This document shows, in pieces, positions 552 through 58,265 of a stretch of DNA of 64,000 bases. The DNA comes from Acidimicrobiia bacterium (lineage in GTDB: Bacteria; Actinomycetota; Acidimicrobiia; Spongiisociales; ZC4RG35), in assembly GCA_040905965.1 (NCBI GenBank), contig JBBDQP010000058.1, positions 24,344-88,343 on the forward strand. The letters are read 5' to 3'. How positions within the stretch are numbered: position 1 is the stretch's first letter; each line of letters opens with the position of its first letter. Made by a program: the position numbers and the translations under genes. The notes under the pieces were generated by a model. That model did no database searches and had not been told where the DNA came from. It saw only the letters and a program-made list of their open reading frames with translations.

Positions 552-1429
552 GACGCCTCAGCTTCTCGCACCGCCGATTCGATCGCTCGGCCGACCGCCT
601 CGAACGCCGCCTCGGCCACCACGTGACGTGGCACCTCAACGTCCCCGCAACTCACGGCGAAACAGGTGTCGCCGTCGAAGCGGGTGTGGGCCGGCCGCAG
701 GCAAGCGGCAAGCGCATCCTGACCGCGGACGGCGAGACGGGTGAGATCGGACCGGTTGAATCGGGCGTCGGTCGCCACGACCACCAGAGTCGTGTTCTGA
801 CCCCACTCCGGCTCGAAGGCGGGAGCCCCCGATACGTGGGGTCCGCCGGTCAGCGGCTCGCCCTCAAGTGTGAAGACATCACCCATCGCGTTGAGGACGA
901 CCAGTGCGCCGACGGTGGCACCCGCCCGGGTGGCAACGGCTGAGCCGATTCCGGCGGGGACTGGCTGCATCCGCCACTTCCCTACCGACGTTCCGGTTCC
1001 CGCCCCCACCCGACCGAGGTGGACCGGGTCCGAACTTCGACTTCGATACGCAGCGGCCCCCTGCTGGGGTCCGGGCCGGACCGAGGCGTCGCCTTCCATC
1101 AAATCGAAGACCACGGCCGTCGGAACGATCGGCACCGGTCCAGCCGGCGTCTCATGTCCCCGACCATCGACCTCCAGTTCCCGCATCACGCCGTCGGCAG
1201 CAGCGAGACCGAAGGCACTCCCCCCGGTGAGGAGGACGGCGTGGCATTGCTCGACAGCCATTCCCGGTTCGAGCAGTGCGGTTTCGCGCGAGCCCGGGGC
1301 GGCTCCGCGAGTTTCGGCGGTGACCACGTTCGGTTCGGGGAGGGTGACCACGGTGCATCCGGTGCGCGCCACGGGGTCGGTCCAATGTCCGACCTCGATT
1401 CCCGGGATGGCGGTGATCGTCGTGTTCAC
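548..1429 (-). CDS. P1 family peptidase (DmpA/L-aminopeptidase-like, S58)
   Basis: The ORF frame runs to 1561, but its Arg-rich N-terminus overlaps the SDR gene. A GTG at 1429 overlaps the SDR stop (GTGA). Conserved 'NTTITAIPGIEVGHWTD' and a Gly/Thr-rich DmpA-type core. Confidence 0.6.
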   Translation of the reverse strand: MNTTITAIPGIEVGHWTDPVARTGCTVVTLPEPNVVTAETRGAAPGSRETALLEPGMAVEQCHAVLLTGGSAFGLAAADGVMRELEVDGRGHETPAGPVPIVPTAVVFDLMEGDASVRPGPQQGAAAYRSRSSDPVHLGRVGAGTGTSVGKWRMQPVPAGIGSAVATRAGATVGALVVLNAMGDVFTLEGEPLTGGPHVSGAPAFEPEWGQNTTLVVVATDARFNRSDLTRLAVRGQDALAACLRPAHTRFDGDTCFAVSCGDVEVPRHVVAEAAFEAVGRAIESAVREAEAS

Positions 1430-8891: not shown

Positions 8892-9698
8892 GTGCGCAAG
8901 CTGTCGGACATCACCCACATCGGGCGGATCATCGATCTCCGGCTGGCATCCAACCGGGCGGCGCTGCTCATTCCGACAGGGGCGGCCCTGGTGCTGTACG
9001 GCTTGGACACCTCCGACATCCGCCGGGCAATCGCCGGAGCCATGGGATCGGTGGCGGCGTGGATGCTGGCCCGGGAACTCGATCCGGATCGACCCCATGC
9101 CGCCACCATCGCCGCATTCTTGGCCCCGGCGTCGACCCTGGTCCTCGGCGCTCCCGCTCCGGCCGCGTTGTTCTTGACGTTGTTCACCGCCCGCATCCTC
9201 GCCCGCACCACCGGACTGCCTCCCCGCACCACCGACTACGCCGGAGTCGGACTGGGCGCAGTGGTATTCGCCGACACTCCGTGGGGCTGGGCGGTGGGCA
9301 TCCTGCTGGCCTTCGCCATGGTGCGCGACGTCGCCCTGCCGGGCGATCCCCCGATGAATGCCGGCTTGTGGGGAGCGGTATTGGCGATCGGAGTGACCCT
9401 GCGCGCCGCCTTTGGAGACCGTCTGGGCGACTGGACCGCGCCCGACGTGACCTCGCTCGGGTTCATCTTGTTTGGACTGGTCGGTGCAGCGGTCGTCGTG
9501 CAACCGATACCGGTTCTCTCGTTGGGAGATTGGACCCGAATGCCGCTCGAGCCGCGCCGGGTCCGAGAGGCGGCGGTGTTCACAGTGCTCACCGCGGCCC
9601 TGGCGGTCCTTGCCGGCGGTCAGGCGGGCGTGGTGGCGGTCGCCCCGCTGCTCATGACCTTCGCGGCGGTGGCCATGACCCGGATCGCTTCGCGCTGA
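8892..9698 (+). CDS. hypothetical polytopic membrane protein
   Basis: 268 aa with 6-8 hydrophobic segments. GTG start at 8892. No recognisable motif. Confidence 0.45.
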   Translation: MRKLSDITHIGRIIDLRLASNRAALLIPTGAALVLYGLDTSDIRRAIAGAMGSVAAWMLARELDPDRPHAATIAAFLAPASTLVLGAPAPAALFLTLFTARILARTTGLPPRTTDYAGVGLGAVVFADTPWGWAVGILLAFAMVRDVALPGDPPMNAGLWGAVLAIGVTLRAAFGDRLGDWTAPDVTSLGFILFGLVGAAVVVQPIPVLSLGDWTRMPLEPRRVREAAVFTVLTAALAVLAGGQAGVVAVAPLLMTFAAVAMTRIASR

Positions 9699-10373
9699 TC
9701 AGATCACCTGCCGCACCCGGGCAAACACCCCGTCGAACATTTCTTCAGTCAACCGCCTTGTGAACGTGTTCTGCTGACTGGGGTGATACGAACAGATCAC
9801 GAGGGGACCGTTCTCGAGTGCGACCTCGACACCGTGACCGAACTTGGGTTTCGGCACCGGACGCTGCCACCCGAGCGGCTCGCACATCCTGAGCACCGCA
9901 TCGAAGCCCAGCCCGCCCAAGGCGACGACGACCTCGAGCTTCACCAAAGCCCTCATTTCGGCGACCGTCCACTCCAGACACGCCGCCCGCTCACCGGCAG
10001 TGGGCGTGTTGTCTGGCGGAGCGCAATGGACGGCGGAGGTCACAAACACCCCGGTGAGTTCCAGCCCGTCGCCGGCGTGGCTCGACTCTGGCTGGTTGGC
10101 GAAACCCGCCCGATCCAGCGCCCGGAACAGCCAGTCACCGGACCGGTCGCCGGTGAACATGCGCCCGGTGCGGTTGGCGCCGTGGGCGGCTGGGGCGAGA
10201 CCGACAATGGCCACCCTGGCATCAGAATCACCGAACCCGGGTACCGGTCGTGCCCAGTAGTCGTCGTCACGGAACGCCGCCCGCTTCTCCCGACCGACCC
10301 TCTCCCGCCACTCCACCAGTCGCGGGCAACGGCGGCATTCGATCAGCTCGGAGTGGACCAGGTCGAGGCTCAA
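9699..10373 (-). CDS. uracil-DNA glycosylase, family 5 (UdgB-like, Fe-S)
   Basis: 'ECRRCPRL' Cys motif and 'GLAPAAHGANRTGRMFTGD', characteristic of UdgB. A TTG at 10373 overlaps the stop of the upstream gene (TTGA). The longer ORF to 10502 would overlap its neighbour by 130 nt. Confidence 0.65.
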   Translation of the reverse strand: MSLDLVHSELIECRRCPRLVEWRERVGREKRAAFRDDDYWARPVPGFGDSDARVAIVGLAPAAHGANRTGRMFTGDRSGDWLFRALDRAGFANQPESSHAGDGLELTGVFVTSAVHCAPPDNTPTAGERAACLEWTVAEMRALVKLEVVVALGGLGFDAVLRMCEPLGWQRPVPKPKFGHGVEVALENGPLVICSYHPSQQNTFTRRLTEEMFDGVFARVRQVI

Positions 10374-11833
10374 CCCGGATCGAGGGCGTCGACGCTCACA
10401 TTGGAGAAGGCGTTCCACAGCATCCAGCCGAGTCCGAACGCCTCGGCCGATTCGGTCTGCGCTCTCACCTGGTCGGCCGTGTAACCGAAGTCCTGCAGCC
10501 ACGGCCGGATGATTGCGCCCCGCTCCAACCGGGAGATTCCGTCTTGAAGGGCCCGGTGCACCATTTCACCCGGGTGATCGACGGGTCGGGCAAAGCCATA
10601 CCAGTCCGCCGAGTAGTGGCTGGGGTAGAGCATCGGCGAAGCCACGTCGACGGTGTCGACAAGAACATCCCACTGCTGGCCGATCCCGCCGTCGTCGCGT
10701 GCCGTCGTGATGAACCCGAAGATGTCTGCCGCCACCGCGCATCCGAGCGGATGCAAGACCTCGCGCGCTTCGAGCAGGAACGACTCGATCGTGGCGACCC
10801 TCGTCTCCGAATCCGAACCGCCGTCGAAGACGACGGTGTCGGGAAGGCCATCGGGGTAGCGGACATAGTCGAACTGGATCTCGTCGACGCCGAGTTGACA
10901 TGCCTCGACCGCGAGCGAGAGGGCGTACCCGCGAGCCTTGGGATCGGTCGGATCGAGGAACCACTGCCCGTTGTTGTTGTACGGACCGTCCGTGGCGGTG
11001 TTCCACGCCGCGATATCGGGTATGCGCTGGGCAGCCTGCGGGTCCTGGAATGTCACGATGCGGCCGATCAGGTAGAGATCCCGGGCGTCGACGTCCCTCA
11101 CGATCTCGCCGAGGTCGTACAGCGGGTAGTCGGCGTTGGCTTCCTCGGCCACGCCGACAGCGGTGTCGTAGTAGATGAGGCCGTACTCGTCTTTGAGGTC
11201 CAGCATCACCCCGTTCAACTCGGTCGCTGCCTTGAGATCGAGGATCGCCTTCCACCGGACGGGATCGCCGGCCACTTCGCCGGTGACGTGGACCGCTTTC
11301 ACCACCCGTGGCTCGATCTGGATCGTGCGTTCGCCGAGACCGCCATCCCATTGGAAGTCTGCGAGGTGCCAGGCGGGACGCCAGACCCTTACCTCGCCTG
11401 GCTCGGCGAGCCGGACGGAGAACGCACCATCGGGACCAGACACGGCGCTCCCTCGACCGGATTCGACGTACACGCCCTCGACCGGCCGCCCGTCGGGATC
11501 CTGGACGATCCCGCGCAGAGTGTGTGGCATGAGCCGCACGGTTGTCGCCGAGTCCACGGTCGGGGATGTCACCGGCTGCGGCAGGAAGCCATCAGCCTCG
11601 ACGATGAGGTGACCGTCGTCCGGCCAGTCCAGCGTCGCGACGCCGTCGGGACCGGTCGTCGCCTTTTCCGAGCCGTCGGCCACCAGCAACGCACCCGGAA
11701 CCGGCTCGCCCCGCTCGTCGACCACAGCAACAGCAGCCGAAGTCTCCGGTCCGAACGCGGCGAAGCCCGCCCACCCCGCCCAGACCAGGGTGATGACGAG
11801 AAGGACCCGAAGTTGATGTGTGCGTTTCGCCAT
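10370..11833 (-). CDS. putative secreted glycoside hydrolase-like protein (GHL/DUF4015 family TIM barrel) with N-terminal Ig-like domains
   Basis: Signal peptide (LLVITLVWAGWAGFAAF). The 'DEIQFDYVRYPDG' motif resembles the DYIRYP hallmark of the DUF4015/GHL family. 487 aa. Confidence 0.55.
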   Translation of the reverse strand: MAKRTHQLRVLLVITLVWAGWAGFAAFGPETSAAVAVVDERGEPVPGALLVADGSEKATTGPDGVATLDWPDDGHLIVEADGFLPQPVTSPTVDSATTVRLMPHTLRGIVQDPDGRPVEGVYVESGRGSAVSGPDGAFSVRLAEPGEVRVWRPAWHLADFQWDGGLGERTIQIEPRVVKAVHVTGEVAGDPVRWKAILDLKAATELNGVMLDLKDEYGLIYYDTAVGVAEEANADYPLYDLGEIVRDVDARDLYLIGRIVTFQDPQAAQRIPDIAAWNTATDGPYNNNGQWFLDPTDPKARGYALSLAVEACQLGVDEIQFDYVRYPDGLPDTVVFDGGSDSETRVATIESFLLEAREVLHPLGCAVAADIFGFITTARDDGGIGQQWDVLVDTVDVASPMLYPSHYSADWYGFARPVDHPGEMVHRALQDGISRLERGAIIRPWLQDFGYTADQVRAQTESAEAFGLGWMLWNAFSNVSVDALDPG

Positions 11834-11983
11834 GGCTCGGCCAAGTGTACGAACTCCGGCAGTTAGGCGAACCTCGGCGAAACTTCATTGCGGGCGTCAC
11901 ACCCTGGTGATACTTTGGCCACCGGTGTCGGGACCATCCCGCACCGTGAGCGCAGCGTCTGCTGGGACGGAGAGGGGGTTCTC

Positions 11984-12910
11984 GTGTCCAACCGCCATTC
12001 GGCATCCGCAGCCGACACGATCGGCATGTACCTCGACGAGGTCTCCTCCCACACGCTCCTGACCGCGGATGACGAGATCCGGCTGTCGCGCACGATGGAG
12101 CACGGCCGCCGGGCAGCCATCCGACTCGAGACCGAGCCCGATTTGGACGCCGAGGAACGCCGTCGCCTCCAACGAATCGTCGAGCAGGGCGAGGAGGCGA
12201 AAATGGCCTTCATTCGCGCCAACCTGCGTCTCGTCATCTCGATCGCGAAACGCTACGCCGGTCGCGGCCTCGACCTCCTCGATCTCATCCAGGAGGGCAA
12301 CCTCGGCCTCATCCGAGCCGTCGAGAAGTACGACTGGAAGAAGGGTTTCAAGTTCTCGACCTACGCCACCTGGTGGATCCGCCAGGCCATCAGTCGAGGT
12401 CTCGGCAACGCCGCTCGCACCATCCGGCTCCCTGTCCACATGGTGGACATCGTCCGCACCGTCCACGACACCAGACAGATCCTGTTCGAGACGCTGCGGC
12501 GACCGCCAACGCTCGACGAGATCGCCGAATACAGCGGCCTCGACATCGACAAGGTAGAAGCCGCCGTTCGAGCGCCGACGGACACCGTCTCACTGGACCG
12601 TCCGGTCGGCGAGGACGGAGACTCCGAACTGCACGAGTTCGTGGTCGACGTCGCGGCGCCCGATCCGTACCTCGAAACCGCCGAAGCGGACCGCCGATCT
12701 CACATGCTCACAGCTCTCGCACACCTCGACCCCGAGGAGCGGATCATCGTTGATCTCCGGTTCGGTCTCTCGGGCGACGACCCGTGGACGATGTCCGCCG
12801 TCGGCAAACATCTCGGACTGACTCGTGAGCGAGTGCGGAACATCGAGACCAGGGCGCTGGCCAAACTGCGCCATCCATCGTGCGGGGTGGATCTCGAAGA
12901 ACTCTTGTAG
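11984..12910 (+). CDS. RNA polymerase sigma-70 family sigma factor (group 2/SigB-like, lacks region 1.1)
   Basis: Region 2 ([13 protein letters not shown]) and region 4.2 HTH ([20 protein letters not shown]). The GTG at 11984 is preceded by GGAGAGGGGG. Confidence 0.8.
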
Positions 12911-12940
12911 GCAGGGTTCGTCGGGGTAGCTTGTCAGGGC

Positions 12941-13210
12941 ATGCCCTTCGACGACATCACCAACCAGGCGGTGCTCCTCATTGCCCTCTCCGGAGGAATC
13001 GGCGGGCTGCTGGGCGGACTTCTCGGATCGCTCCGGGCCAATCTGATCGGTTCCATCCTGGTGGGTGCGATCGGAGGAATCTCGCTCGGTGCCATCATGC
13101 GGATCGCCAACGTCGACCCGATCGTCGACGCCGGCGGCGGCTACAGCTGGCTCTGGTCCTTCATCGGCGGCCTGGTCCTCGGCCTCGCCGTCTCCGCCTC
13201 CAACCGCTAG
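12941..13210 (+). CDS. GlsB/YeaQ/YmgE family stress-response membrane protein
   Basis: 89 aa, Gly-rich, two TM segments. GIGG..LLGG pattern typical of the transglycosylase-associated (GlsB) family. Confidence 0.7.
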   Translation: MPFDDITNQAVLLIALSGGIGGLLGGLLGSLRANLIGSILVGAIGGISLGAIMRIANVDPIVDAGGGYSWLWSFIGGLVLGLAVSASNR

Positions 13211-13240
13211 GCGCGAACCCCTGGGTACGCAACGATCGAT

Positions 13241-14653
13241 CTAGCCGATGGCGCCGGCTTCGGCCATGTTGAGCTCGATCAGACGGTTCATCTCGACGGC
13301 GTATTCCATCGGGAGTTCACGCACGATCGGCTCGATGAACCCGGCGACGATCATCGACGTCGCCTGATCCTCGGTGAGTCCGCGGCTCCGGAGATAGAAG
13401 AGCTGCTCGTCTCCCACCTTCGAAACGGTCGCCTCATGTCCGATCTCGGCGTCGTTCTCCTCGATCTCCATGTACGGATAGGTATCCGAGCGTGAGTGGT
13501 CGTCGAGGATCAGCGCGTCGCAACGGACGAAGCTCTTGGAATTGACCGCTCCCTCTTCGACACGGACAAGCCCCCGGTAGCCCGCCCGTCCACCGTTCTT
13601 CGAAATGGACTTAGACACGATCGTCGACGTGGTGTTCGGTGCGACGTGGACCATCTTCGCTCCGGCGTCCTGATGCTGACCCTCACCGGCGAATGCGATC
13701 GAAAGCACCTCGCCGTGCGCGCCCGGCTCCATCAGCCAGACTGCCGGGTACTTCATCGTGAGCTTCGACCCGAGGTTGCCGTCGATCCACTCCATCGTGG
13801 CGTTCTCATAGGCGGCAGCCCGCTTGGTGACGAGGTTGTAGACGTTGTTCGACCAGTTCTGGATGGTCGTGTAGCGGCATCGGCCGCCCTTCTTGACCAC
13901 GATCTCGACCACGGCCGAGTGCAACGAGTCCGACGTCCAGATGGGAGCAGAGCACCCTTCGACGTAGTGACAGAACGCGTCTTCGTCGACGATGATGAGG
14001 GTCCGCTCGAACTGACCCATGTTCTCGGAGTTGATCCGGAAGTAGGCCTGAAGCGGCTGATCGAGGTGCACGCCGGGCGGGACGTAGATGAAGGACCCGC
14101 CTGACCAGACCGCCGAATTGAGCGCGGCGAACTTGTTGTCGTTGGGCGGGATGATCGTTCCCATGTACTCCTGGACGATCTCCGGGTACTCGCGCACCGC
14201 CGTATCCATGTCACAGAAGAGCACGCCGAGTTCTTCGAGGTCCTCCCGGTTGCGGTGATAGACGACCTCGGACTCGTACTGCGCCGTGACTCCGGCCAGG
14301 TACTTCCGTTCGGCCTCCGGAATTCCCAGCTTCTCGTAGGTCGCCTTGATCGACTCGGGCACCATGTCCCAGTCTTTGGACTGACCTTCGGTGGGCTTGA
14401 CGTAGTAGTAGATGTCGTCGAAGTCGATGTCCTCGAGTGCGCCACCGCCACCCCACGTCGGAAGGGGCTTGGCGAGGAACCGCTTGTAGGACTTGAGGCG
14501 GAAGTCCAACATCCAGTCGGGCTCGTCCTTGATCTTCGACATCTGGCGGATGATCTCTTCGGACAGCCCCTTCTGGGGCTTGAACACGTACTCGTCTTCC
14601 GAGTCGTGCCAGCCGAGCTTGTATGCACCGAGGTCGATATCGACGGTTGCCAT
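13241..14653 (-). CDS. sufB: Fe-S cluster assembly protein SufB
   Basis: 470 aa with SufB-like sequence throughout (…[17 protein letters not shown]…). GAGGTGA RBS. No sufD, sufC or sufS downstream. Confidence 0.9.
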
Positions 14654-14679
14654 CAGGCGTTCACCTCTGCGATCGAATT

Positions 14680-14806
14680 TGCACTATGCACGTAGTGTAA
14701 AGCGCATCACGCCTGAACGGTATTCCGCACGGGCACGTTCTCGCCTCCCCTGGATTGGTTGGTGCAAGCGCTTTCGACGTAGAATCCTAACTTGCGCATA
14801 TGCGCA
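14680..14806. promoter_or_regulatory. candidate operator/promoter elements in the sufB-gltB divergent intergenic region (TGCACTATGCAC, TGCAAGCGCTTT, and the perfect palindrome TGCGCATATGCGCA)
   Basis: Seen directly: 12-14 bp direct/inverted repeats of TGCRC(A) with a TA spacer. The perfect 14-bp palindrome sits 29-42 nt upstream of the gltB ATG, between TAGAAT and CATAAT -10-like hexamers. Confidence 0.4.
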
Positions 14807-14834
14807 TAATGCCGAACGCCGCGAGGAGGGGCAC

Positions 14835-17800
14835 ATGACGGACGCATCCCACCACACCCGCCGTGTGGACGCACGCGCCGCCGCCCAGCGCCACGGTCTG
14901 TACCGGGAGGAGACCGAGCACGACTCCTGTGGCGTCAACTTCGTCGTCGACCTCAAGGGCCGAAGAAGCCATCAGATCGTCCAGCACGGCATCGACGCCG
15001 TCTGCAATCTCGAACACCGCGGGGCGACGGGAGCCGATCCCCTCACCGGAGACGGTGCAGGCATCCTCATCCAGGTCCCTGACCGGTTCTTCCGTGCGGT
15101 CGTCGACTTCGAACTGCCCCCGGAAGGAACGTACGCCACCGGTATCGCGTTCCTCCCCCAGGAGGGGGAGCAGGCAAGGATCGCCCGGGCGAGGATCGAG
15201 GCGCTCGTGGTGGACGAGGGCCTCGACGTGCTCGGGTGGCGCGATGTCCCCGTCGAGCCGTCGATCCTCGGCAAGGCGGCGCTCGAGACGATGCCGCGCT
15301 TCAAGCAGATCTTCATCGCCGGCAAAGGTCTGAGCGGCATGGCCTTGGAGCGCCAGTCCTATGTCTTACGCAAACGGATCGAGCACGAGATCCACCTGCA
15401 GGCTGGACCGGACGAGGTCAACGAGGCGATCGGCGGAGCCTCGACGATGCACGACGGCGTCTACTTCCCGAGTCTCTCGTGCCGCACGTTCGTGTACAAG
15501 GGAATGCTCACGGCGCGACAGGTCGCCGAATTCTTCCCCGACCTTCACGACGACCGGGTCGAGAGCGCGATGGCTCTCGTGCACTCGCGATTCTCGACCA
15601 ACACGTTCCCCATGTGGCCGCTCGCCCACCCGTACCGCATGGTCGCCCACAACGGCGAGATCAACACCATCCAGGGCAATCGCAACTTCATGCGCGCCCG
15701 CGAGACGCTCCTCGACACGGACCTGATCCCCGGCGACCTGTCCCGGATCTTCCCTGTGTGCTCCCCTGGTGCCTCGGACACCGCCGGTTTCGACGAGGCG
15801 CTCGAGTTGCTGTACATGGGCGGCTATCCGATCACCGAGGCGGTGCTGATGATGATTCCCGAGCCGTGGGAGCGGCATCAGCACATGGACCCGGATGTGC
15901 GAGCGTTCTACCAATACCACGCCTCACTGATGGAGCCGTGGGATGGGCCGGCCTCGATCGCCTTCACCGACGGTCGGGTCATCGGCGCCGTCCTCGACCG
16001 CAACGGCCTCCGCCCCAGCCGGTACTGGGTCACCGATGACGACCTCGTGATCATGGCTTCGGAGGTCGGTGTCATCGACATCCCGCCACACAAGGTCATC
16101 GAAAAAGGCCGGCTGCAGCCCGGAAAGATGTTCCTGGTCGACACGACGAAGGGCCGCATCGTCCGCGACGAGGAGATCAAAGCCGAACTGGCTTCCGCCC
16201 GCCCCTATCGGGAGTGGCTCGACCGACAACTTCTGCACCTCGACGACGTCGAACGGCGCGAGTCGCACCGAAGCGAAGCCTCCTCCCTCCTTTCGCGCCA
16301 ACAGACGTTCGGCTACACCCATGAGGAGCTCAAACTGCTGTTGGCGCCGATGGCCCGGGACGGCAAGGAGGCGCTCGGATCGATGGGCACGGACACGCCG
16401 GTGGCGGTGCTGTCCGCCCGACCGCGCCTGATGTACGACTATTTCAAGCAGCTCTTCGCACAGGTGACCAACCCCCCGCTCGACGCCATCCGCGAAGAAC
16501 TGGTCACCGCACTCCGCACGATGATCGGACCCGAGGGGAACCTCTTGGCGCCGCGAGAGCGCTCAGCGAACATGATCGAGCTGGACAGCCCGATCATCGA
16601 CAACGACCAGCTCGAACAGCTCTTGCATCTCGACGAGGCCCCAACCGTCGAAGGATTCACCGCGGTCATTCCCTGCCTGTTCGAAGTCGACGCCGGCGAA
16701 GCGGGCTTGCGGTCCGCCATCCAATCGGTCTTCGACCAGGTGGATGCCCTCATCGAACAGGGCGTCTCGGGGATCGTGCTCTCCGATCGAGGAGTCGACG
16801 CCGCTCACGCCCCGATACCCTCCCTGCTCATCACGGCAGGTGTCCACCACCACCTCATCCGCACGAAAAACCGCACCCGTATCACGTTGATCGTCGAAAC
16901 CGGAGAAGCGCGCGAGGTGCACCATCTGTGCCTCCTCCTCGGATACGGTGCGGCTGCCATCAACCCGTACCTGGCGTTCGAGACGATCGACTCGATGATC
17001 GACCAGCGGCTGTACGAGGTCGACTCGATCGACCGGGAGACCGCCCACGCCAACTACATCGACGCGGCCGGCAACGGGATCCTCAAGGTCATGTCCAAGA
17101 TGGGCATCTCCACGGTCGCCTCCTATATCGGGTCACAGATCTTCGAAGCCGTCGGTATCGGCAGTGAACTGGTCGACCGCTTCTTCACGGGAACACCGAG
17201 TCGCCTCGGGGGCATCGGTCTCGACACCGTCGCCGAAGAGGTGGCACTCCGCCATCGTGTGGCATTCGCCCCGAACCCGGCGGAACGAGCCCACCGGGAT
17301 CTCGACCTCGGCGGCGAGTACCAATGGCGTCGGGAAGGCGAAATCCACCTCTTCGCGCCGGAGACGGTGTTCAAGCTCCAGCATTCGACCCGCGAGGGGC
17401 GCTACGACATCTTCAAGGAGTACAGCAAGCTCGTCGACGACCAGACCGAGCGACTGGCCACGCTTCGAGGGCTGTTCCGCTTCAAGACGGGCGTGCGACC
17501 ACCGGTTCCAATCGAGGAGGTCGAACCGGTCTCGGCAATCGTCAAGCGGTTCTCGACCGGTGCGATGTCGTATGGGTCGATCTCCCGCGAGGCCCATGAG
17601 ACGCTCGCCATCGCCATGAACCGGATCGGCGGCAAGTCGAATACGGGTGAGGGCGGTGAGGACGCTGACCGCTACACGCCGGACGCCAACGGCGATTTGC
17701 GCCGTTCGGCGATCAAGCAGGTCGCTTCGGGCCGTTTCGGGGTCACGTCCGAGTACCTGGTGAATGCCGACGACCTCCAGATCAAGATGGCGCAGGGCGC

Positions 17801-35294: not shown

Positions 35295-36872
35295 ATGATT
35301 CGCATGCTCGAAGTTCAAGGATTCGACGGTGCGGTCGTGACGCCGCATGTGCTCTCGACCCAGGCCGGAATGGAGGCTCTCGACCGGGGCGGCTCGGCGG
35401 TGGATGCCGCCATCGCCGCCAACGCCGTGCAGGGCATGGTGGCCCCGGAGACCTGCGGGATCGGAGGCGATCTCTTCGCTCTGATTCACACGAACGGCGC
35501 AGTCACCGCCCTCAACGCCTCGGGATGGGCGGGCTCGAATGCGTCGGCGCAGGACCTCCGGGATGAAGGCCTGACGTCGATCCCTCAGCACCACCCGGCA
35601 GGCGTCACCATCCCGGGATGCGTGGCGGGATGGTTCGCCCTCCACCAAAGGCACGGACGGCTTCCGTTCGGCGACCTACTCCAACGAGCGATCGAGCATG
35701 GACGGCGCGGGTTCGCCGCCTCCACCGAGTACAGCCGCGCCACTCATCGCATGGCCGAATTCCTTGCCGGGAACGAAGCAGGAGCCCAGTTGCTCATCGA
35801 CGGTCGACCGGCGCTCCGAGGTGAGCGCGTTCATCGGCCGAATCTGGCGCACACCCTGGAACGGATCGCCGAGGGAGGCCCCACAGCGTTCTACGAAGGT
35901 CCGGTCGCCAAGTCGGTCAGCGAGGCCGTCGGCGGACTCATCACCCCGGACGACCTCGCCGCCTACTCCCCCGACTGGGTCGACCCGATCTCCGCCCGAG
36001 TGTTCGGTGTGACGGGTTGGACGATTCCGCCCAACAGCCAGGGATATCTGACCCTCGCCACTCTCCTCCTCTTCGAATCGCTCACTCCCACCCTGGACCC
36101 CGGCGACCCGAGATGGACCCACACCCTCATCGAGGCGTATCGGGCAGTGGCCGCCGAACGCGACGACGTCGTCGCCGATCCTCATCATGCGCCCCTCCCG
36201 AACGAGGTGCTGCTCGACCCGGAACGCCTGGCAGCCTTCGGCGAGAAGATTTCGATGGACTCCGCAGCACCACAACCGCGGCCCATGCCCAAGCCGGGTG
36301 GAACGATGTACATGTGCGCGGTCGACGGCACCGGGATGGGCGTGTCGCTGATCGAGTCGAACTTCCGGGGAATTGGCTCTGGGATCGGCGCCGCCGACAG
36401 CGGGTTCATCCTCCACGACCGCGGTGGTGGGTTCGACCTGCGAACAGGTCACCCCAACGAGATCGGCCCAGGCAAGCGACCACTGCACACCCTGTCTCCG
36501 ACACTGTGGACCGACGGCGCCCGGCTTCGCACCGTGCTCGGCACGCGGGGCGGACATCAGCAACCGCAACTCCTCGCCCAGGTCGCCGCCCTGCTCTTCG
36601 GGGCAGGCCGGTCCGCGGGCCACGCCCAGAGTGCACCCCGCTGGACGATCGCCAACGCCGAGCTGACGGCCACCACTTCCGTGATCGACGTCGAATCCTC
36701 CATGTCGAGTCACATCACCGCCGGCCTCGCCGAGCGTGGCCACACAGTGCGCCCCCAGGCCGACCGGATGGGAGGGTGGGGGCCGGCATCCGTGATCGAC
36801 ATCGACTCGCAGGGGCTTCGCACCGCGGCTGCCGACGGGCGGGTCGACACCGCGTCGGCCGCGGTGCGCTGA
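35295..36872 (+). CDS. ggt: gamma-glutamyltransferase
   Basis: GGT family throughout, with the nucleophile region 'GGTMYMCAVDGTG'. 525 aa. Confidence 0.8.
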   Translation: MIRMLEVQGFDGAVVTPHVLSTQAGMEALDRGGSAVDAAIAANAVQGMVAPETCGIGGDLFALIHTNGAVTALNASGWAGSNASAQDLRDEGLTSIPQHHPAGVTIPGCVAGWFALHQRHGRLPFGDLLQRAIEHGRRGFAASTEYSRATHRMAEFLAGNEAGAQLLIDGRPALRGERVHRPNLAHTLERIAEGGPTAFYEGPVAKSVSEAVGGLITPDDLAAYSPDWVDPISARVFGVTGWTIPPNSQGYLTLATLLLFESLTPTLDPGDPRWTHTLIEAYRAVAAERDDVVADPHHAPLPNEVLLDPERLAAFGEKISMDSAAPQPRPMPKPGGTMYMCAVDGTGMGVSLIESNFRGIGSGIGAADSGFILHDRGGGFDLRTGHPNEIGPGKRPLHTLSPTLWTDGARLRTVLGTRGGHQQPQLLAQVAALLFGAGRSAGHAQSAPRWTIANAELTATTSVIDVESSMSSHITAGLAERGHTVRPQADRMGGWGPASVIDIDSQGLRTAAADGRVDTASAAVR

Positions 36873-50762: not shown

Positions 50763-51950
50763 TCAGCCTTCGGGGGGGCGCGCTCCGAGTTCTGCGTCGA
50801 CGAAGAGAGTTTCGCCGTCACGCTCGATCTCGAGTTCGACGACGTCACCGACGCCGTAGTTTCTGATCACCGCGGCGAGGTCGGTGAAGTCTCCGATCCG
50901 GTCGCCGTCGACGGCAACCACGATGTCACCCAATTGCAGCCCTGCAGCAGCAGCCGCGGTGTCCGGGTTCACTTGCGTGATCACCGAACCCGCCCGACCG
51001 GTGGCCGTCGCATCGATCGACACACCGAGGAATCCGGGTTCGAATGTGCCCCCGTCGATGATGGCCCGCGCCACCCGATAGGCACGGTCGATCGGGACGG
51101 CGAATCCGACGCCGTCGTTGGCGCCGCTGGCCGAAAAGATCGAAACGTTGATGCCGACGATCCGCCCGAACCTGTCTGCCAGGGGTCCGCCACTGTTCCC
51201 CGGATTGATCGAGGCGTCGGTCTGGAGCATCAGCCGGGGAAGCCCGTCGGGGCCGGGGATCGCCTGATCCACGGCCGAGATGATCCCCGACGTGACCGTC
51301 GAGTCGAGACGCCACGGTGAACCGAGCGCGATCGCGAGTTGACCGGGTCGCGGGTCGTCGTTCAAAGCGAGCGGGGCGGCGGGTAGCCCGGTCAAAGCCA
51401 CCTCGATGACGGCGATGTCGTTGTCGTCGTCTGCTCCGATGACGCGGCCGGGAACCCGATCACCGTTGGCGAAGCGGACGAGCACATTCTCCACGCCGAC
51501 CACGACGTGGGCCGCCGTGAGGATCCGTCCGTTGCGATCGAAGATCACGCCACTTCCCAGCCCACCGGACTCGAGTTCGATCTGCACGACGGAGGGGAAA
51601 AGTGCTTCCGCGACGTCCGCCACCGGTTCGTCGGACTCGGAACTCACGAGCGGGGCAGTCTCCGGACCCGCCACAGGCGCCGTGTTGTCTGGCGGTGGCA
51701 CGATCGAAGTGGAGGAGGGCGGCGTTTCGGCCATGGACGTCGTCGTAGTCGACTCGGCAGCGACGACGGTGGTTTCGGTTGGGACGGGAGGTCCTGCGAG
51801 CCAGCCGATGCCTGCACCGGCGACGAACACGGTGAGAACGGCGAAGAAGATGACGACCCGCGACGGGGAAGCGTCGTACGGGGGTGTGTCGTCCGTCACC
51901 GAGATGTGATCCATATCCAGCATTCCAACGTCTCCGGCCGCTTGTGCCAA
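50763..51950 (-). CDS. HtrA/DegP-family serine protease with PDZ domain (PepD-like)
   Basis: His/Asp/Ser triad motifs (TAAHVV, DIAVIEV, GNSGGPL). N-terminal TM segment and C-terminal PDZ domain. Confidence 0.85.
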   Translation of the reverse strand: MAQAAGDVGMLDMDHISVTDDTPPYDASPSRVVIFFAVLTVFVAGAGIGWLAGPPVPTETTVVAAESTTTTSMAETPPSSTSIVPPPDNTAPVAGPETAPLVSSESDEPVADVAEALFPSVVQIELESGGLGSGVIFDRNGRILTAAHVVVGVENVLVRFANGDRVPGRVIGADDDNDIAVIEVALTGLPAAPLALNDDPRPGQLAIALGSPWRLDSTVTSGIISAVDQAIPGPDGLPRLMLQTDASINPGNSGGPLADRFGRIVGINVSIFSASGANDGVGFAVPIDRAYRVARAIIDGGTFEPGFLGVSIDATATGRAGSVITQVNPDTAAAAAGLQLGDIVVAVDGDRIGDFTDLAAVIRNYGVGDVVELEIERDGETLFVDAELGARPPEG

Positions 51951-51962
51951 CTCATGGATATC

Positions 51963-53138
51963 TCAGCTCTGGTAAACCGGCGGTAAAGCGTCCACCGGCG
52001 GTGTGGGCGTGCTCACGCCCCCGGTCGGTATCCACACGACGAGGATGGCGCCGCCGTCGACGCGTTTGTCCGACGTCAACCGGCCATGATGCAGCCGAGC
52101 CACCTCGCGCACGATGGGCAACCCCAGCCCGCGTCCGTCGCCCGCCCCTTCCACCACCGCAGGATCGATACCAGGACCCCTGTCCGCAACCGCGAAATAC
52201 GCCCATCCGTCCACCAGTCCTGTCCCGAGCCTGATCGTCGATCCCCGAGGCGACATCCGCAGGGCGTTCTCCACGAGGTTGCCCACGGCCCTGTCGAGGG
52301 TGGCACGATCTCCTTCGACGACTGCGGAGTGAGCATCCAGTTCGATCGACACGCCGGCCGCCTCCAGTCGGGCTGCCCAGTCCTCGGCAACCACTCCCGC
52401 CACATCGGAGAGGTCGAGTTCGACCATCACCACCTCGTCGACTTCGAGCCGGGCGACGGCGAGTAGTTCCTCGACCATGCGCCCCATCTGGTCACTCGCC
52501 CGGGACACGAGCTCACCGGTCTCCCGCCAGTCGTCCACGGTCGCCTCGGGATCGTCGAGCGCGACCTCGACATTCGACCGGATCACCGCCAACGGGGTAC
52601 GCAGATCGTGCGATGTCCGGGCCAGGAGATCGCGCTGAGCGCGAAACGCCCGGTCGAGCCGGTCGAGCATCGCATCGAAGGTACCTGCCATCTGGGTCAG
52701 CTCGTCGGGCGGGCCGCTCAATCCGATGCGACGAGTGAGGTCGGTGGCTTCGATCTCCTGGGCGACGGCAGTGATCCGCGTCAGCGGCTTCAGCGCCCGC
52801 CCGGCGGTGAACCAGCCGACCGCGAGCGAGAGCACAAAGAGAGCGGCGAATACGAGGAGGGTGATTCCCGCAACCTGGTTGAGGATGAACTCGCGAACAA
52901 GGCTTTCGAGCGTGCGGATTTGCTGCTCTTCGATTTGGGGGAGGAAGACGATCGTCCCGTCGATCTCGACTGTTCGGCCGCCCGTGACCACCCGTTGGGT
53001 CATGGTGAGCCCGCGCACCGCGTCAAGAACAGCGAGATAGACGACCCCGAGGGCGAGGCCACCGATACCGAAGACCACCGCAGAGGTGATCCACGACAGG
53101 CGGAAGCGGAGCGACTTTGTGACCGGCGGAAGATCCAT
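51963..53138 (-). CDS. sensor histidine kinase (MprB-like; TM-HAMP-HisKA-HATPase)
   Basis: H-box 'LARTSHDLRTPL'. C-terminal 'DRGPGI' and 'GLGL' ATPase motifs. Confidence 0.85.
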   Translation of the reverse strand: MDLPPVTKSLRFRLSWITSAVVFGIGGLALGVVYLAVLDAVRGLTMTQRVVTGGRTVEIDGTIVFLPQIEEQQIRTLESLVREFILNQVAGITLLVFAALFVLSLAVGWFTAGRALKPLTRITAVAQEIEATDLTRRIGLSGPPDELTQMAGTFDAMLDRLDRAFRAQRDLLARTSHDLRTPLAVIRSNVEVALDDPEATVDDWRETGELVSRASDQMGRMVEELLAVARLEVDEVVMVELDLSDVAGVVAEDWAARLEAAGVSIELDAHSAVVEGDRATLDRAVGNLVENALRMSPRGSTIRLGTGLVDGWAYFAVADRGPGIDPAVVEGAGDGRGLGLPIVREVARLHHGRLTSDKRVDGGAILVVWIPTGGVSTPTPPVDALPPVYQS

Positions 53139-53183
53139 CCGATCCGAAAGGCTATCGGCTGTCTCCTAAGGCCGAGGTAAACG

Positions 53184-53861
53184 TCACGGAGAGCGCGCCA
53201 CGTACCCGCGCCCAGGCACCGTCTCGATCACTCGTGGATCCCCCAGCTTCTTGCGCAGGTTCGAGATCGTCACTCGAACAGTGTTCGTGAACGGATCGGC
53301 CATCTCGTCCCAGACATGCTCGAGCAGATGCTCCTGGCTGTGCACCACGTCCGGATGCAGGAGGAAGTACTCCAGCAAGGCGAACTCCTTGGCGGTCAGA
53401 CCCAACTCGCGACCGTCGCGTTCCGCGGCGAATCGGGCAGGGTCGAGGACGATGTCGCCCAACTCCAAGACCGGGGCGCGATCCTGTTCGCGCCGCAACA
53501 GCGCCCGCACCCTCGCTTCCAACTCCGCAAAGGCGAACGGCTTGACGAGGTAGTCGTCTGCGCCGGCGTCGAGCCCTCGCACCCGGTCGTCGAGCGTGTC
53601 GCGTGCCGTCAGCATCAGAATCCGGGGAGGGATGCCGTCGAGAGTCGGAACGGTTCCGGCCTTGAGCCCGGTGGCCAGGTCGATCCCGGCACCGTCCGGC
53701 AGATTCCAGTCGAGGATGACCAAATCGTGTTCGGCGCCAACGAGGGTGATCTCAGCTTCCGAAATTGTGCCGACGATGTCCACGGCATGACCACGGCGGG
53801 TGAGACCGCGGCGGATGGCGGCCGCGAGATCAGCCTCGTCTTCGACGATCAGGATGCGCAC
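53184..53861 (-). CDS. OmpR-family response regulator (MprA-like)
   Basis: 'ILIVEDE' receiver domain and a winged-helix C-terminus. GTG start at 53861. Confidence 0.85.
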   Translation of the reverse strand: MRILIVEDEADLAAAIRRGLTRRGHAVDIVGTISEAEITLVGAEHDLVILDWNLPDGAGIDLATGLKAGTVPTLDGIPPRILMLTARDTLDDRVRGLDAGADDYLVKPFAFAELEARVRALLRREQDRAPVLELGDIVLDPARFAAERDGRELGLTAKEFALLEYFLLHPDVVHSQEHLLEHVWDEMADPFTNTVRVTISNLRKKLGDPRVIETVPGRGYVARSP

Positions 53862-53913
53862 GACCCCAATCTCGCACAGCAGGGTGTTCGAGGCGAGCGG
53901 TAGCGTCTCTGAG

Positions 53914-54639
53914 ATGAGCCGACCCATCGACGCTCACGCCGCAGTGCTCTTCGATCTCGACGGCGTGCTGACTCCCACCGCAGAAGTCCATCGGAGAGCA
54001 TGGAAACGCACATTCGATCGCGTTCTCGCCACCCATGTGGGAGCACAGGCAGATCCGTTCACGACCGACGACTACCTCCGATACGTCGACGGGAAGCCCC
54101 GCTTCGACGGCGTGCACAGTTTTCTCGCGGCCCGCGGGATCGAACTCCCCCAAGGCGAGCCGGATGAAGAGCCGTCGCTCGACTCCGAGACAGGGGTCGG
54201 GAACCTCAAGAATCGCGAATTCACTGCGGTCTTGGGAGAAGAAGGAGTCGACGCCTATCCGGGCTCGGTGGCTCTGCTGGACCATCTTCTGAAGGCGGGC
54301 GTGGCGGTGGCGGTCGTGTCGTCGAGCGCCAATGCCGAGTCGGTGCTCGAGGCAGCCGGACTCCGCACCCGCTTCGAGGTGATCGTCGACGGGATCGTCG
54401 CCCTGCAGCGGGGTCTTCCCGGAAAGCCGGCCCCCGACACGTTCCTGGCCGCCGCCCGCGAACTCGGGGTGGACGCCGCGGACGCAGTCGTGGTCGAAGA
54501 CGCTCTGTCCGGCGTCCAAGCCGGCGTGGCGGGAGGTTTCGGGCTGGTCGTCGGTGTCGACCGCGGAGGCCAAGCAGAGGCGCTGGCAAAGGCGGGGGCG
54601 CACGTCGTCGTCTCCGATCTCGCCGAACTCCTTCCCTGA
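53914..54639 (+). CDS. pgmB: HAD-family beta-phosphoglucomutase
   Basis: 'VLFDLDGVLT' motif I. Immediately upstream of the GH65 phosphorylase gene. Confidence 0.7.
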   Translation: MSRPIDAHAAVLFDLDGVLTPTAEVHRRAWKRTFDRVLATHVGAQADPFTTDDYLRYVDGKPRFDGVHSFLAARGIELPQGEPDEEPSLDSETGVGNLKNREFTAVLGEEGVDAYPGSVALLDHLLKAGVAVAVVSSSANAESVLEAAGLRTRFEVIVDGIVALQRGLPGKPAPDTFLAAARELGVDAADAVVVEDALSGVQAGVAGGFGLVVGVDRGGQAEALAKAGAHVVVSDLAELLP

Positions 54640-57013: not shown

Positions 57014-58265
57014 GGGTGAGCAGGGCGGTCGATTCGTCGTAGACGAGGGTGTACAAGATCCCCCCGGATTCGACCGTTCCGTTGATCCCTTCGAGCAGCG
57101 GCTGCCGCACGTCCAGACCCAACTCGCCCAGCAGAGAGGCTCGCTGCTGGGGTGTACGGTCTGGTTCGACCGTGGCGATGGCGACGCCAAGCGCCTGGAT
57201 ACCCACCCTGTCGTATTCGGCAGGTCCGCTCGGATCGATATCCAGGGCGAACTCGTCGAGAGTCCCATCCGGCTGGACCACGCTGACGAGGGAAAGGAAG
57301 GGCGTGAACCGCTCCTCGAACGGGCCGAGCACCGGATTGGCGTCGAATTCCAAGACCTGGTCAACCGGTCCGCCGGCGGCGTCCCAGGCGGCGACGAACT
57401 CGGATGACGGCTGGTCGAAGATCACGTCGCCGACCGGGGCGGGTGGACTCGTCGTCGCCGTCACGTCTTCTGCGATGGTCGTCGACGGCGCGACGGTGGC
57501 TTCCGACACCGGGAGCGTCGTTGGGGGCCGTGCCTCACTTTCGTAGTTCTGGATGAACTCGATGGCAAGTGGCGTGACGAATGCGAACAGTGCGACGACT
57601 GCGGCCACCCCGGCAATGAGCCCGGCGATCTTCATCCGCTGGCTCCGCTTGGCGTCCTTCACCTGATACCCGCGCAGAGAGCGCTGGGCGAACAACGCGT
57701 CTTCGGCCACGGTGTTCGGCCCGGGAACGTACTCCTCGGCGAGGAGACGAGCTTGGGAGGGCCGTTCGTCGGCATCGTCGCGGTTGTCGAAGGCGGCGGG
57801 ATCTGCATGGGAGATGGGGAGCGCCGCCGGCGTGAAAGGGAACGCGACCGGATCATCGGCCGACTCCGCATCGGTAGTCGGGACAGCTGAAGGAGGAGGG
57901 GACGAGTGGTCGTCGCTGTCGGATCCGACGCCCCGCTCCTTGATGATGGCGACGAGCGAGCTGAAGCCTTCTGGATCGACGGGGGTGAACACCGCATCGT
58001 CACCATCGACCACGATCCTGAACGACCCGTCTCCAGCCGGATCAGCGTCGATCCGGCATTCTTCGATGGGCCAGGTCCCGAGTTCGCCGCCTGCCGCGCT
58101 CATGCGCAGGGTGCGTCCGCCAATCAACTCGACATCGATGTCGAGTCCTTCGCCGGCACCTGTCACCAGGAGTCCGGAATGTACGGTGGCGTCGTTGGTC
58201 ACAATCATCATTCTGCAAGGTCCCACAACACCATCGGCCGTCAATCCCGCCGACTTGAAGGACAT
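56991..58265 (-). CDS. hypothetical single-pass membrane protein (cytoplasmic N-domain, TM, extracytoplasmic C-domain)
   Basis: One TM segment ('IAGLIAGVAAVVALFAFV'), flanked by an acidic Pro-rich linker. Start taken at the internal Met at 58265, because the upstream gene ends at 58324. Confidence 0.4.
   Translation of the reverse strand: MSFKSAGLTADGVVGPCRMMIVTNDATVHSGLLVTGAGEGLDIDVELIGGRTLRMSAAGGELGTWPIEECRIDADPAGDGSFRIVVDGDDAVFTPVDPEGFSSLVAIIKERGVGSDSDDHSSPPPSAVPTTDAESADDPVAFPFTPAALPISHADPAAFDNRDDADERPSQARLLAEEYVPGPNTVAEDALFAQRSLRGYQVKDAKRSQRMKIAGLIAGVAAVVALFAFVTPLAIEFIQNYESEARPPTTLPVSEATVAPSTTIAEDVTATTSPPAPVGDVIFDQPSSEFVAAWDAAGGPVDQVLEFDANPVLGPFEERFTPFLSLVSVVQPDGTLDEFALDIDPSGPAEYDRVGIQALGVAIATVEPDRTPQQRASLLGELGLDVRQPLLEGINGTVESGGILYTLVYDESTALLTLTVAPAN

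Follow-up and report, generated by a model that had tools for sequence, protein, structure and literature searches.

The divergent promoter region between sufB and gltB, located in the 64-kb stretch of Acidimicrobiia DNA analyzed here (referred to as the window), contains an 18-nt element, CTTGCGCATATGCGCATA, that lies immediately in front of the glutamate synthase genes gltB and gltD. Alignment of orthologous regions demonstrates that it is a real cis-element of the gltBD promoter region under strong purifying selection, and a comparison of gene neighborhoods likewise demonstrates that it goes with gltB rather than with sufB. The element is probably the docking site of a gltBD regulator and is put forward here as a candidate for that role. 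The sufB gene is probably controlled separately from gltBD, via an inverted repeat of its own that is common with the promoters of sufD. On the comparative evidence, then, the intergenic region is composed of two independent control modules that were brought together by the loss of an intervening gene. The features discussed below are listed in Table 1.

Table 1 Features of the sufB/gltB intergenic region and its flanking genes in the window
Feature	Position	Strand	Remarks
sufB, 470 aa	13241-14653	-	TIGR01980, 717 bits
Candidate Suf-regulon operator, GAATTTGCACTA-TGCACG-TAGTGTAAAGC	14675-14703	-	Arms at 14680-14686 and 14693-14699; A/T tracts on both sides
Conserved block B, CGGTATTCCG / CGGTATTCC	~14719-14728	not assigned	Fixed distance from the Suf operator; invariant run 14721-14726
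Partly conserved block GATTGGTTGGTGCAAGCGCTTT, -35 and spacer region	14753-14774	+	Holds TGCAAGCGCTTT
-10-like hexamer TAGAAT, putative gltBD promoter	14780-14785	+	Conserved hexamer in the alignment; predicted promoter role
18-nt invariant element CTTGCGCATATGCGCATA	14791-14808	+	Putative gltBD operator; holds the palindrome TGCGCATATGCGCA
gltB Shine-Dalgarno sequence GAGGAGG	14823-14829	+	Found 5-8 nt ahead of the ATG in all six aligned regions
gltB, glutamate synthase large subunit, 1543 aa	14835-19466	+	NF008730, 1711 bits
gltD, glutamate synthase small subunit, 487 aa	19459-20922	+	Start overlaps the gltB stop

The sufB gene is monocistronic in the window, and downstream of it lie a convergent small membrane ORF and the gene for a SigB-like sigma factor. 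Four relatives (L172, L174, L175, and L178), those whose contigs reach far enough, display the gene order of the window, namely DUF4015, SigB-like sigma factor, small ORF, sufB (minus strand), gltB (plus strand), gltD, NmrA-like, and M23. The gltD orthologues in these four loci also encode 487 residues and show an identical 8-nt overlap with gltB. Searches with GltB, SufB, and GltD assign the window to uncultured Acidimicrobiia. A first group of relatives, referred to as subclade 1, is made up of L001, L172, L174, L175/L176, and L178. Their proteins are 87-90% (GltB), 81-86% (GltD), and 92-96% (SufB) identical to those of the window, with the SufB value for L001 measured over the first 107 residues only, where that locus is cut. 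The informative syntenic relatives were found via GltD look-ups, and scans of metagenomes and genomes with the GltB N-terminus gave mostly distant relatives. Six syntenic sufB/gltB intergenic regions, those of the window, L001, L172, L174, L175, and L178, were used for the footprinting alignment.

Three motifs in this region were singled out in the original prediction: TGCACTATGCAC (14680-14691), TGCAAGCGCTTT (14763-14774), and the palindrome TGCGCATATGCGCA (14793-14806). All of these sequences and coordinates are correct, as is the placement of the perfect 14-bp palindrome 29-42 nt upstream of the gltB ATG (14835). The geometry of the dyad, TGCGCA-TA-TGCGCA, can be described as either 6-2-6 or 5-4-5, and the symmetry expected of an operator for a dimeric repressor is perfect over its 14 bp. 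The palindrome doubles as a tandem repeat, TGCGCATA twice over, and positions 14793-14808 form 16 bp of perfect pyrimidine-purine alternation. Additional copies were sought in the window with the 14-mer (allowing up to 3 mismatches), the 8-mer, a 9-mer, and a 10-mer, and only the site itself was recovered. The 8-mer TGCGCATA is absent from the rest of the 64 kb (three overlapping matches at the site; 0.41 expected), and matches to the 14-mer with up to 3 mismatches are no more numerous in the window than in shuffled sequences. Palindromes of at least 14 bp are likewise not above chance, with 4 observed in the window versus ∼8 expected under a first-order Markov model. Given that the length of the palindrome is unremarkable and that its degenerate matches are at shuffle level, the case for the element rests on the comparative evidence.

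Pairwise identity among the six intergenic regions is 35-61%. All 18 positions of CTTGCGCATATGCGCATA are invariant in the alignment, and a permutation test of the run of 18 invariant columns yielded P ∼5e-5. Conservation in orthologous promoters against a diverged background is a hallmark of an operator for a dimeric repressor, and the 18-nt element displays it. Phylogenetic footprinting of the gltB upstream regions, proposed in the original prediction, thus bears out the palindrome. Two observations had been named beforehand as counting against the motif, namely its occurrence only here and its lack of conservation. No other copy is indeed present in the window, but the motif is conserved in front of orthologous gltB genes. 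The invariance reaches 2 nt past the 14-bp dyad on both sides and includes the central ATAT. Such symmetric flanks and an invariant center are easier to reconcile with a protein footprint than with a stem-loop, in which the loop would be free. Between the element and the Shine-Dalgarno sequence the six regions carry indels of 12-34 nt, and the flanks of the element diverge.

Upstream of the element the six regions contain, in alignment with positions 14780-14785, the hexamers TAGAAT, TACACT, TAGACT, TACACT, TACACT, and TACAAT. The gap of 5-6 nt between this TAnAnT hexamer and the CTTGCGC at the start of the element is fixed in all six. The TAGAAT of the window places the predicted transcription start at approximately 14790-14794, which corresponds to the left edge of the palindrome. 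A strict sigma-70 scan yielded no full promoter. It had been suggested that the palindrome sits between two -10-like hexamers; the upstream one is conserved, but the downstream CATAAT is replaced by CATACA or CATAAA in the relatives. Block C, GATTGGTTG...AAGCGCT, is kept in four of the six regions and has diverged in L175 and L178.

Two coding features overlapping the element were considered and rejected. The first was an upstream ORF that begins with the ATG at 14800 and ends with a TGA overlapping the gltB ATG. Its peptide is not conserved past MRI, its length and frame vary, and it is not preceded by a Shine-Dalgarno sequence. The second was an N-terminal extension of gltB across the element, in a frame that is open from 14493. 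It is contradicted by the fact that the 12-34 nt indels are out of frame and by the conservation of both the Shine-Dalgarno sequence and the MTDAS start.

A second group of relatives (L017, L108, L081, and L161, referred to as subclade 2) encodes GltB proteins that are 75-78% identical to that of the window. Between sufB and gltB there is an EamA gene in L081 and L161 and an EamA gene plus a further ORF in L017, such that sufB lies 1.5-3 kb away. In L108 the position directly upstream of gltB is occupied not by sufB but by an antitoxin-like ORF, as read from its translation alone. The 9-mer TTGCGCATA is found once per locus, always on the sense strand and upstream of gltB, in L001, L017, L081, L108, and L161. 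In the four loci of subclade 2 it is positioned 43-77 nt before the gltB start in spite of the differing upstream neighbors. Throughout the 1.5 Mb of fetched loci it never occurs upstream of sufB or sufD where gltB is not adjacent.

The second arm of the element is more variable in subclade 2. It takes the form TTGCGCATA-TCGG-TATGCGGG in L081, a degenerate TTGCGCATA-TTTG-TATGGAC in L161, and TTGCGCATA-CCTGAATGGC-TATGCGCG in L017 and L108, where 10 nt lie between TTGCGCATA and TATGCGCG. In the window-type loci the two arms overlap, and relative to these the right arm is shifted by 6 bp in L081 and L161 and by 12 bp in L017 and L108. With these shifts and the degenerate arm of L161, the half-site spacing that characterizes the operator of a dimeric repressor is not kept across the wider clade. 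Furthermore, the element is located ∼35-40 nt downstream of the homologous hexamer (TAAGAT/TATGAT) in L017, L081, and L161, as compared to ∼+8 in the window-type loci. The distal palindrome of subclade 2, TGCATATATGCA, is possibly homologous to the window element; the two have GCATAT in common, but the center differs by 2 bp. Hexamers of the type TGCRCA are enriched in the gltB upstream regions of the window-type loci and L017 (P ∼0.001-0.003), and L017 contains a TGCACA-TA-TCCGCA-TATA-TGCACA cluster ∼160 bp farther upstream.

The motif is absent from other relatives at a similar GltB distance (L002/L162, L003, L163, L164, L004, L008, L005, and L066). From these sequence comparisons, the element is a strongly conserved cis-element in one family-level lineage of the Acidimicrobiia. 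In L166 and L169-171, whose SufB proteins show 92-93% identity, the slot adjacent to sufB is filled by another gene, oppositely oriented and without gltD, which encodes a single-subunit GOGAT-like protein 45% identical to GltB. On the basis of these arrangements, and of those in L081, L161, and L017 where EamA separates the two genes, the direct adjacency of sufB and gltB is a derived trait of subclade 1.

We place at about an even chance the reading that the 18-nt element is a gltBD-specific operator for a dimeric repressor. As its dyad begins 7-8 nt downstream of the -10-like hexamer, it would overlie the predicted transcription start together with the first ∼16 transcribed bases (about +1 to +16). 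A dimeric protein, most likely a repressor of the (winged-)helix-turn-helix or ribbon-helix-helix type, would bind TGCGCA-TA-TGCGCA, and gltBD transcription would thereby be blocked at initiation or at promoter escape. As for the signal, one would guess first at nitrogen or glutamate status. We infer the promoter and the start site, a protein on DNA as the ligand, and repression as the outcome. The operator model is supported by the dyad itself, the symmetric invariance, the fixed spacing to the hexamer, the retention of TTGCGCATA in subclade 2, the enrichment of TGCRCA hexamers, the lack of the RNA hairpin in L161 and the folding of whole leaders at the level of shuffled sequences, and the absence of a relevant Rfam match and of matches to known regulator boxes. 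The shifts of 6 or 12 bp in the right arm and the distance of ∼35-40 nt from the hexamer in subclade 2 are not what is predicted for the operator of a rigid dimer. Note also that the perfect palindrome could have arisen incidentally through a tandem duplication of TGCGCATA; the building blocks of this 8-mer, TGCGCA and TA, are both self-complementary.

No cognate regulator gene is linked to the gltB locus in the window or in the loci of the relatives. DNA-binding regulators noted in the window are limited to the SigB-like sigma factor and, ∼38 kb away, a response regulator of the OmpR type that is encoded with its kinase and an HtrA-like protease. A conserved 99-residue ORF that follows the sigma factor gene was examined as a linked regulator and discarded, given that it encodes a glycine-rich membrane protein and is also present in relatives that lack the motif. 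With no second site in the 64-kb window or in the 1.5 Mb of related loci, a regulon cannot be defined.

In actinobacteria, the box for GlnR, an OmpR-type regulator, is composed of the direct repeats gTnAc-n6-GnAAc, and the box for AmtR, a TetR-type regulator, is CTAT-N6-ATAG. Regulator boxes were searched for in ten gltB upstream regions using consensus strings, in part those of the original prediction, rather than curated matrices. In agreement with the original prediction, all ten lack a GlnR or AmtR pattern at or near the element. Specifically, GTNAC-N6-GNAAC with up to one mismatch is absent from the six window-type regions, and its single match in L108 is far from the element; CTAT-N6-ATAG, again with up to one mismatch, has no match in the window-type regions. 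The gltB element resembles these boxes in its location within a gltBD promoter region of the Actinomycetota and in a presumed coupling to nitrogen status, but it differs from both the GlnR direct repeats and the AmtR box in sequence and architecture. Given the lack of a GlnR or AmtR match, it is reasonable to read the element as an operator on which another regulator acts. That part of the original prediction thus gains from the finding of a conserved cis-element at gltB, whereas the notion that the same operator is common to sufB does not hold.

The ARG box has the consensus TGAAT-W4-ATTCA in Escherichia coli or TGCAT-N4-ATGCA in actinobacteria and usually occurs in pairs. It has no match at the palindrome when up to two mismatches are allowed, and TGCGC-ATAT-GCGCA agrees with it at only 6 of 10 arm positions. 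None of the patterns for TnrA/GlnR (MerR-type), NtcA, CRP/GlxR, FNR, ClgR, or IdeR overlaps 14791-14808 in any locus, with the ClgR pattern, CGC-N5-GCG, missed by one base of spacing. Well-known dyad operators include those of ArsR/SmtB (TGAACA-N2-TGTTCA) and FNR (TTGAT-N4-ATCAA). Like these 6-2-6 and 5-4-5 operators of dimeric winged-helix or CRP/FNR-type repressors, the gltB element has arms of 5-6 bp, an A/T center, and a length of 14 bp, and its position would overlap the predicted core promoter or start. It differs from them in its arm, TGCGC (by pattern test for FNR and CRP), and in the loss of half-site spacing in subclade 2.

The sites of MetJ (met-box arrays) and of the ribbon-helix-helix proteins PutA and omega provide another, purely architectural, point of comparison. 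As in those, the gltB element is built of short self-complementary units, TGCGCA or ATGCGCAT, arranged in tandem with an 8-bp period and with variable unit number and spacing. It differs from them in the sequence of the unit, in spacings of 8, 14, and 20 bp that are not multiples of 8, and in that no ribbon-helix-helix regulator has been identified. By analogy only, a small dimer that reads short repeats in the manner of MetJ, PutA, or omega would reconcile the variable spacing; flexible spacing would explain the arrangements of 8, 14, and 20 bp and the upstream TGCACA/TCCGCA clusters in the relatives. A tentative extension of the operator model, which we hold to be possible but on the unlikely side, is that the element is read by a regulator not yet described, which would replace GlnR or AmtR at gltBD in this uncultured Acidimicrobiia family and may be a small dimer that recognizes self-complementary TGCGCA hexamers with flexible spacing.

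One further resemblance emerged from the literature. The stretch TGCGCATAA (14801-14809) corresponds to 9 nt of the XerC arm of E. coli dif, GGTGCGCATAA (PMC10132070). A dif/Xer site was rejected, however, because there is no XerD arm (TTATG...) at a distance of 6 bp, the sequence after the palindrome is variable, and the TAA is not conserved in L001. In addition, the element follows gltB through different contexts, unlike a site for chromosome dimer resolution. Apart from this lead, searching the full text of the literature for the motif sequences turned up nothing but primers and unrelated matches.

The main rival of the operator model is a role at the RNA level, which we regard as rather doubtful. 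The element would then act in the 5' leader of gltBD, where it could form a 5'-proximal stem-loop (UGCGC-AUAU-GCGCA) protecting the mRNA against 5'-end-dependent decay or could serve as a UUGCGCAUA site for an RNA-binding protein or small RNA. The invariable sense orientation of the 9-mer speaks for such a role, as does its fairly constant distance from the start codon (43-77 nt) while that from the hexamer varies (∼+8 versus ∼+35-40). In the window-type loci the hairpin would begin within ∼3 nt of the predicted 5' end. Loop lengths of 4, 4, and 10 nt with an identical left arm are typical of hairpins, and the arms in L017 and L108 are lengthened by three G.U pairs, which are meaningful in RNA only. 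In the window the local hairpin has a calculated energy of -7.5 kcal/mol (z -1.65), compared with -16.3 kcal/mol in L017 (z -3.9), but L081 is marginal (z -0.8), L161 has the 9-mer without a hairpin, and the whole leaders fold no more stably than shuffled sequences. Moreover, the pairing register differs by clade, with the AUA in the loop in window-type loci and paired in L017 and L081, and invariance is as complete in the loop and flanking bases as in the stem. A structured RNA would be expected to show the hairpin in all orthologues together with covariation. Neither was found: the arms are identical wherever they are present, with no covariation or compensatory changes. Searches of Rfam with the window and L017, extending to E values of 10, gave no relevant match.

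It is improbable that the element is a promoter-intrinsic or structural feature of the DNA without a dedicated regulator, such as a discriminator, an initially transcribed sequence, or a supercoiling-sensitive tract that tunes gltBD output. The tract from T14793 to A14808 alternates between pyrimidines and purines and could form Z-DNA or a cruciform, the spacing to the -10-like hexamer is fixed in six genomes, and searches of the window and the related loci yielded neither a partner regulator nor a second site. In subclade 2, however, a distance of ∼35-40 nt separates the 9-mer from the homologous hexamer, and the alternation extends over just 8-9 nt. Base-by-base invariance over 18 nt is, in addition, rarely needed by structural elements.

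The region proximal to sufB contains a second conserved element, which has the pattern AATTT-GCACTA-N6-TAGTGT-AAA and overlaps the first motif of the original prediction, TGCACTATGCAC. On the sufB strand this region of the alignment (block A) reads TTTACACTA-N6-TAGTGCAAATT; its arms and A/T flanks are invariant in the six regions, and the 6-nt spacer is variable. All relatives examined have the element 25-45 nt in front of sufB, whether gltB is nearby or not. It is also located upstream of sufD in L165-L170. In these genomes sufB and sufD-Rieske-sufC are separate transcription units. Within the 1.5 Mb of fetched loci the pattern is limited to the upstream regions of sufB and sufD, which argues for a Suf-regulon operator with a SufR-like architecture.

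In a recent structural study, the SufR sites in the suf promoters of Synechocystis, Streptomyces avermitilis, and Mycobacterium tuberculosis are characterized by a palindromic core that is bordered on either side by an A/T tract no shorter than 4 bp, the published cores being CAAC-N6-GTTG and, in M. tuberculosis, ACACT-N5-TGTGA (bioRxiv 10.64898/2025.12.26.696629). The Suf element described here is similarly placed in suf promoters, shows this arrangement of a palindromic core between two A/T tracts, each of 4 bp or more, and contains the ACACT half-site of the M. tuberculosis sequence. Its core, (A/C)CACTA-N6-TAGTG, is distinct, matching neither CAAC-N6-GTTG nor ACACT-N5-TGTGA. Neither the window nor the fetched loci showed a sufR gene. 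The assignment of 14675-14703 as a SufR-type Suf-regulon operator is, on these sequence grounds, a well-supported lead rather than proven membership.

These observations bear directly on the proposal that one regulator acts at three TGCRC(A)-TA-TGCRC(A) sites and thereby co-regulates sufB, for Fe-S assembly, with gltB, which encodes an Fe-S enzyme. In other bacteria, glutamate synthase can come under iron-sparing control, and TA-separated hexamers of the TGCRCA type do recur upstream of gltB in the relatives, as in the L017 cluster described above. Nevertheless, we consider this proposal highly unlikely. The half-site said to be shared by the three motifs is not maintained: the second TGCAC of the first motif falls in the variable spacer of the Suf inverted repeat and reads CGGAC, CGCAC, CGCAC, CGTCC, and CGTAC in the relatives, and the TGCA of TGCAAGCGCTTT is not conserved, its AAGCGCT core being present in only four of the six regions. 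The first motif thus belongs to another inverted repeat that precedes sufB and sufD irrespective of gltB, and TTGCGCATA is never found before either of these genes unless gltB is adjacent. The Suf inverted repeat (CACTA-N6-TAGTG) and TTGCGCATA therefore follow their own genes independently. The derived adjacency of sufB and gltB also speaks against the proposal, in that the two genes are separated by EamA in some relatives, and in others sufB has another, oppositely oriented GOGAT paralogue as its neighbor. Finally, it is barely credible that the palindrome arose by chance and lacks function, for although 64 kb of such composition would be expected to hold ∼8 palindromes of 14 bp or more and degenerate matches are at shuffle level, the 18/18 invariance in six genomes against a 35-61% background (P ∼5e-5) and the retention of the 9-mer in a second clade already contradict this reading.

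The gltB and Suf elements are both, in kind, ordinary operator-like promoter sites and not a new type of system. The Acidimicrobiia are widespread, mostly uncultured bacteria encountered in marine, freshwater, and soil samples, and we know of no nitrogen-control circuit described for them. Located at GOGAT, the entry point of ammonium assimilation, the 18-nt element provides a concrete handle on the responsible regulator and its regulon and thus an entry point to nitrogen regulation in this uncultured group. The sharply defined Suf operator, located in front of sufB and of sufD-Rieske-sufC as split units, would bring the SufR-type architecture of "palindrome plus A/T flanks" to the Acidimicrobiia and should help in annotation. 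Block B, as judged from its position, is possibly the upstream part of the sufB promoter.

An inverted repeat with a sharply defined sequence, ATTT-(A/C)CACTA-N6-TAGTG-(C/G)-AAATT, was observed in the 1.5 Mb of Acidimicrobiia loci, with sites only upstream of sufB and sufD. The arrangement, a palindrome with A/T flanks, is the same as that described for the sites of SufR, and the repeat looks like an operator of a Suf regulon. Its positions are provided in the table, together with those of some of the other features considered here.

Features in the window and in related loci (L-numbers; each locus has its own coordinates)
Feature	Sequence	Positions	Strand	Location
Suf inverted repeat	window	14675-14703		
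Suf inverted repeat	L165	3956-3981		
Suf inverted repeat	L166	13842-13867		
Suf inverted repeat	L167	4529-4554		
Suf inverted repeat	L168	4241-4266		
Suf inverted repeat	L169	10576-10601		
Small ORF	window	12911-13210	+	directly 3' of sigma factor gene
Single-subunit GOGAT-like gene	L166	4661-9046		
Single-subunit GOGAT-like gene	L169-L171	2551-6930		
Palindrome YGCATATATGCR	L017	3763-3788		
Palindrome YGCATATATGCR	L081	2787-2798		
Palindrome YGCATATATGCR	L108	about 640-665		
Palindrome YGCATATATGCR	L161	4652-4663		

The suf genes are split, both in the window (9699-14653) and in L165-L171. The sufB gene is monocistronic; downstream of it come a convergent small ORF and a SigB-like sigma factor gene. 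In relatives, sufD-Rieske-sufC lies a few kb from sufB, past a UDG-family gene, and in the window the genes seen beside sufB include neither sufD nor sufC. The small ORF is kept in all relatives at the same place after the sigma factor gene, and it encodes 89-105 amino acid residues. As judged from its sequence, the Gly-rich, hydrophobic product is probably a membrane protein, and it has no Pfam or NCBIfam match. In L166, the ∼950 bp from 9047 to 10000 are devoid of genes and are built of complex tandem repeats, the units of which include GATGCCCAGGGGGGACGACCCCCCTTCGACCCCCCGCCGG and GTTCTGCGTTCTGC. Repeats of CTTCCTCCGC lie immediately upstream of the sufB operator in that locus, and similar ones are found in L165, L167, and L168.

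Relatives whose SufB proteins are 92-93% identical (L166, L169-L171) have a different, single-subunit GOGAT-like gene in the slot that is bounded by sufB on one side and by the NmrA-like and M23 genes on the other. Its product, ∼1460 residues in length, shows 45% identity to GltB. The gene is in the opposite orientation, is not accompanied by gltD, and the TGCGCATA motif is absent at its slot. It appears that, at one locus, one type of GOGAT has been replaced by another.

The gltB leaders of other Acidimicrobiia (L012-L015, L083, L090, and L107) have in common another conserved motif, G(C/G)GGCCA(A/G)CGT(C/T)GTCCC(C/T)GCTC, positioned ∼40-90 nt upstream of gltB and ∼20 nt past a -10-like hexamer. 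It might represent a leader RNA element; the Rfam search was confined to window positions 14500-15000 and L017 3600-4100. A GGGCCAA remnant is still present in the leaders of L017, L108, and L081, and the motif has been lost from window-type leaders. Subclade 2 (L017, L108, L081, and L161) has a second conserved palindrome, YGCATATATGCR, which precedes the putative -10 hexamer of gltB by ∼90-110 bp and which window-type loci lack. In L017, L081, and L108, TATGCAY stands before it. Both YGCATATATGCR and the TTGCGCATA element contain GCATAT, but they differ by 2 bp in their centre.

Within the gltB element, the 16 bp at 14793-14808 alternate perfectly between pyrimidine and purine (TG CG CA TA TG CG CA TA). 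DNA of such composition tends to adopt a Z-DNA or cruciform structure when negatively supercoiled.

Elsewhere in the window, a perfect 20-bp palindrome, ACTCGACATCGATGTCGAGT, occurs at 58127-58146 inside an ORF with no family match (∼0.14 expected at such length or longer), and a 16-bp palindrome, GCGACGACGTCGTCGC, at 36160-36175. The only DNA-binding regulators noted in the window are the SigB-like sigma factor (11888-12910) and an OmpR-type response regulator. The latter is encoded on the minus strand in a row of genes (50763-53933) that also specifies an HtrA-like protease with a PDZ domain and a kinase of the HAMP/HisKA type, an arrangement similar to that of MprAB-PepD.
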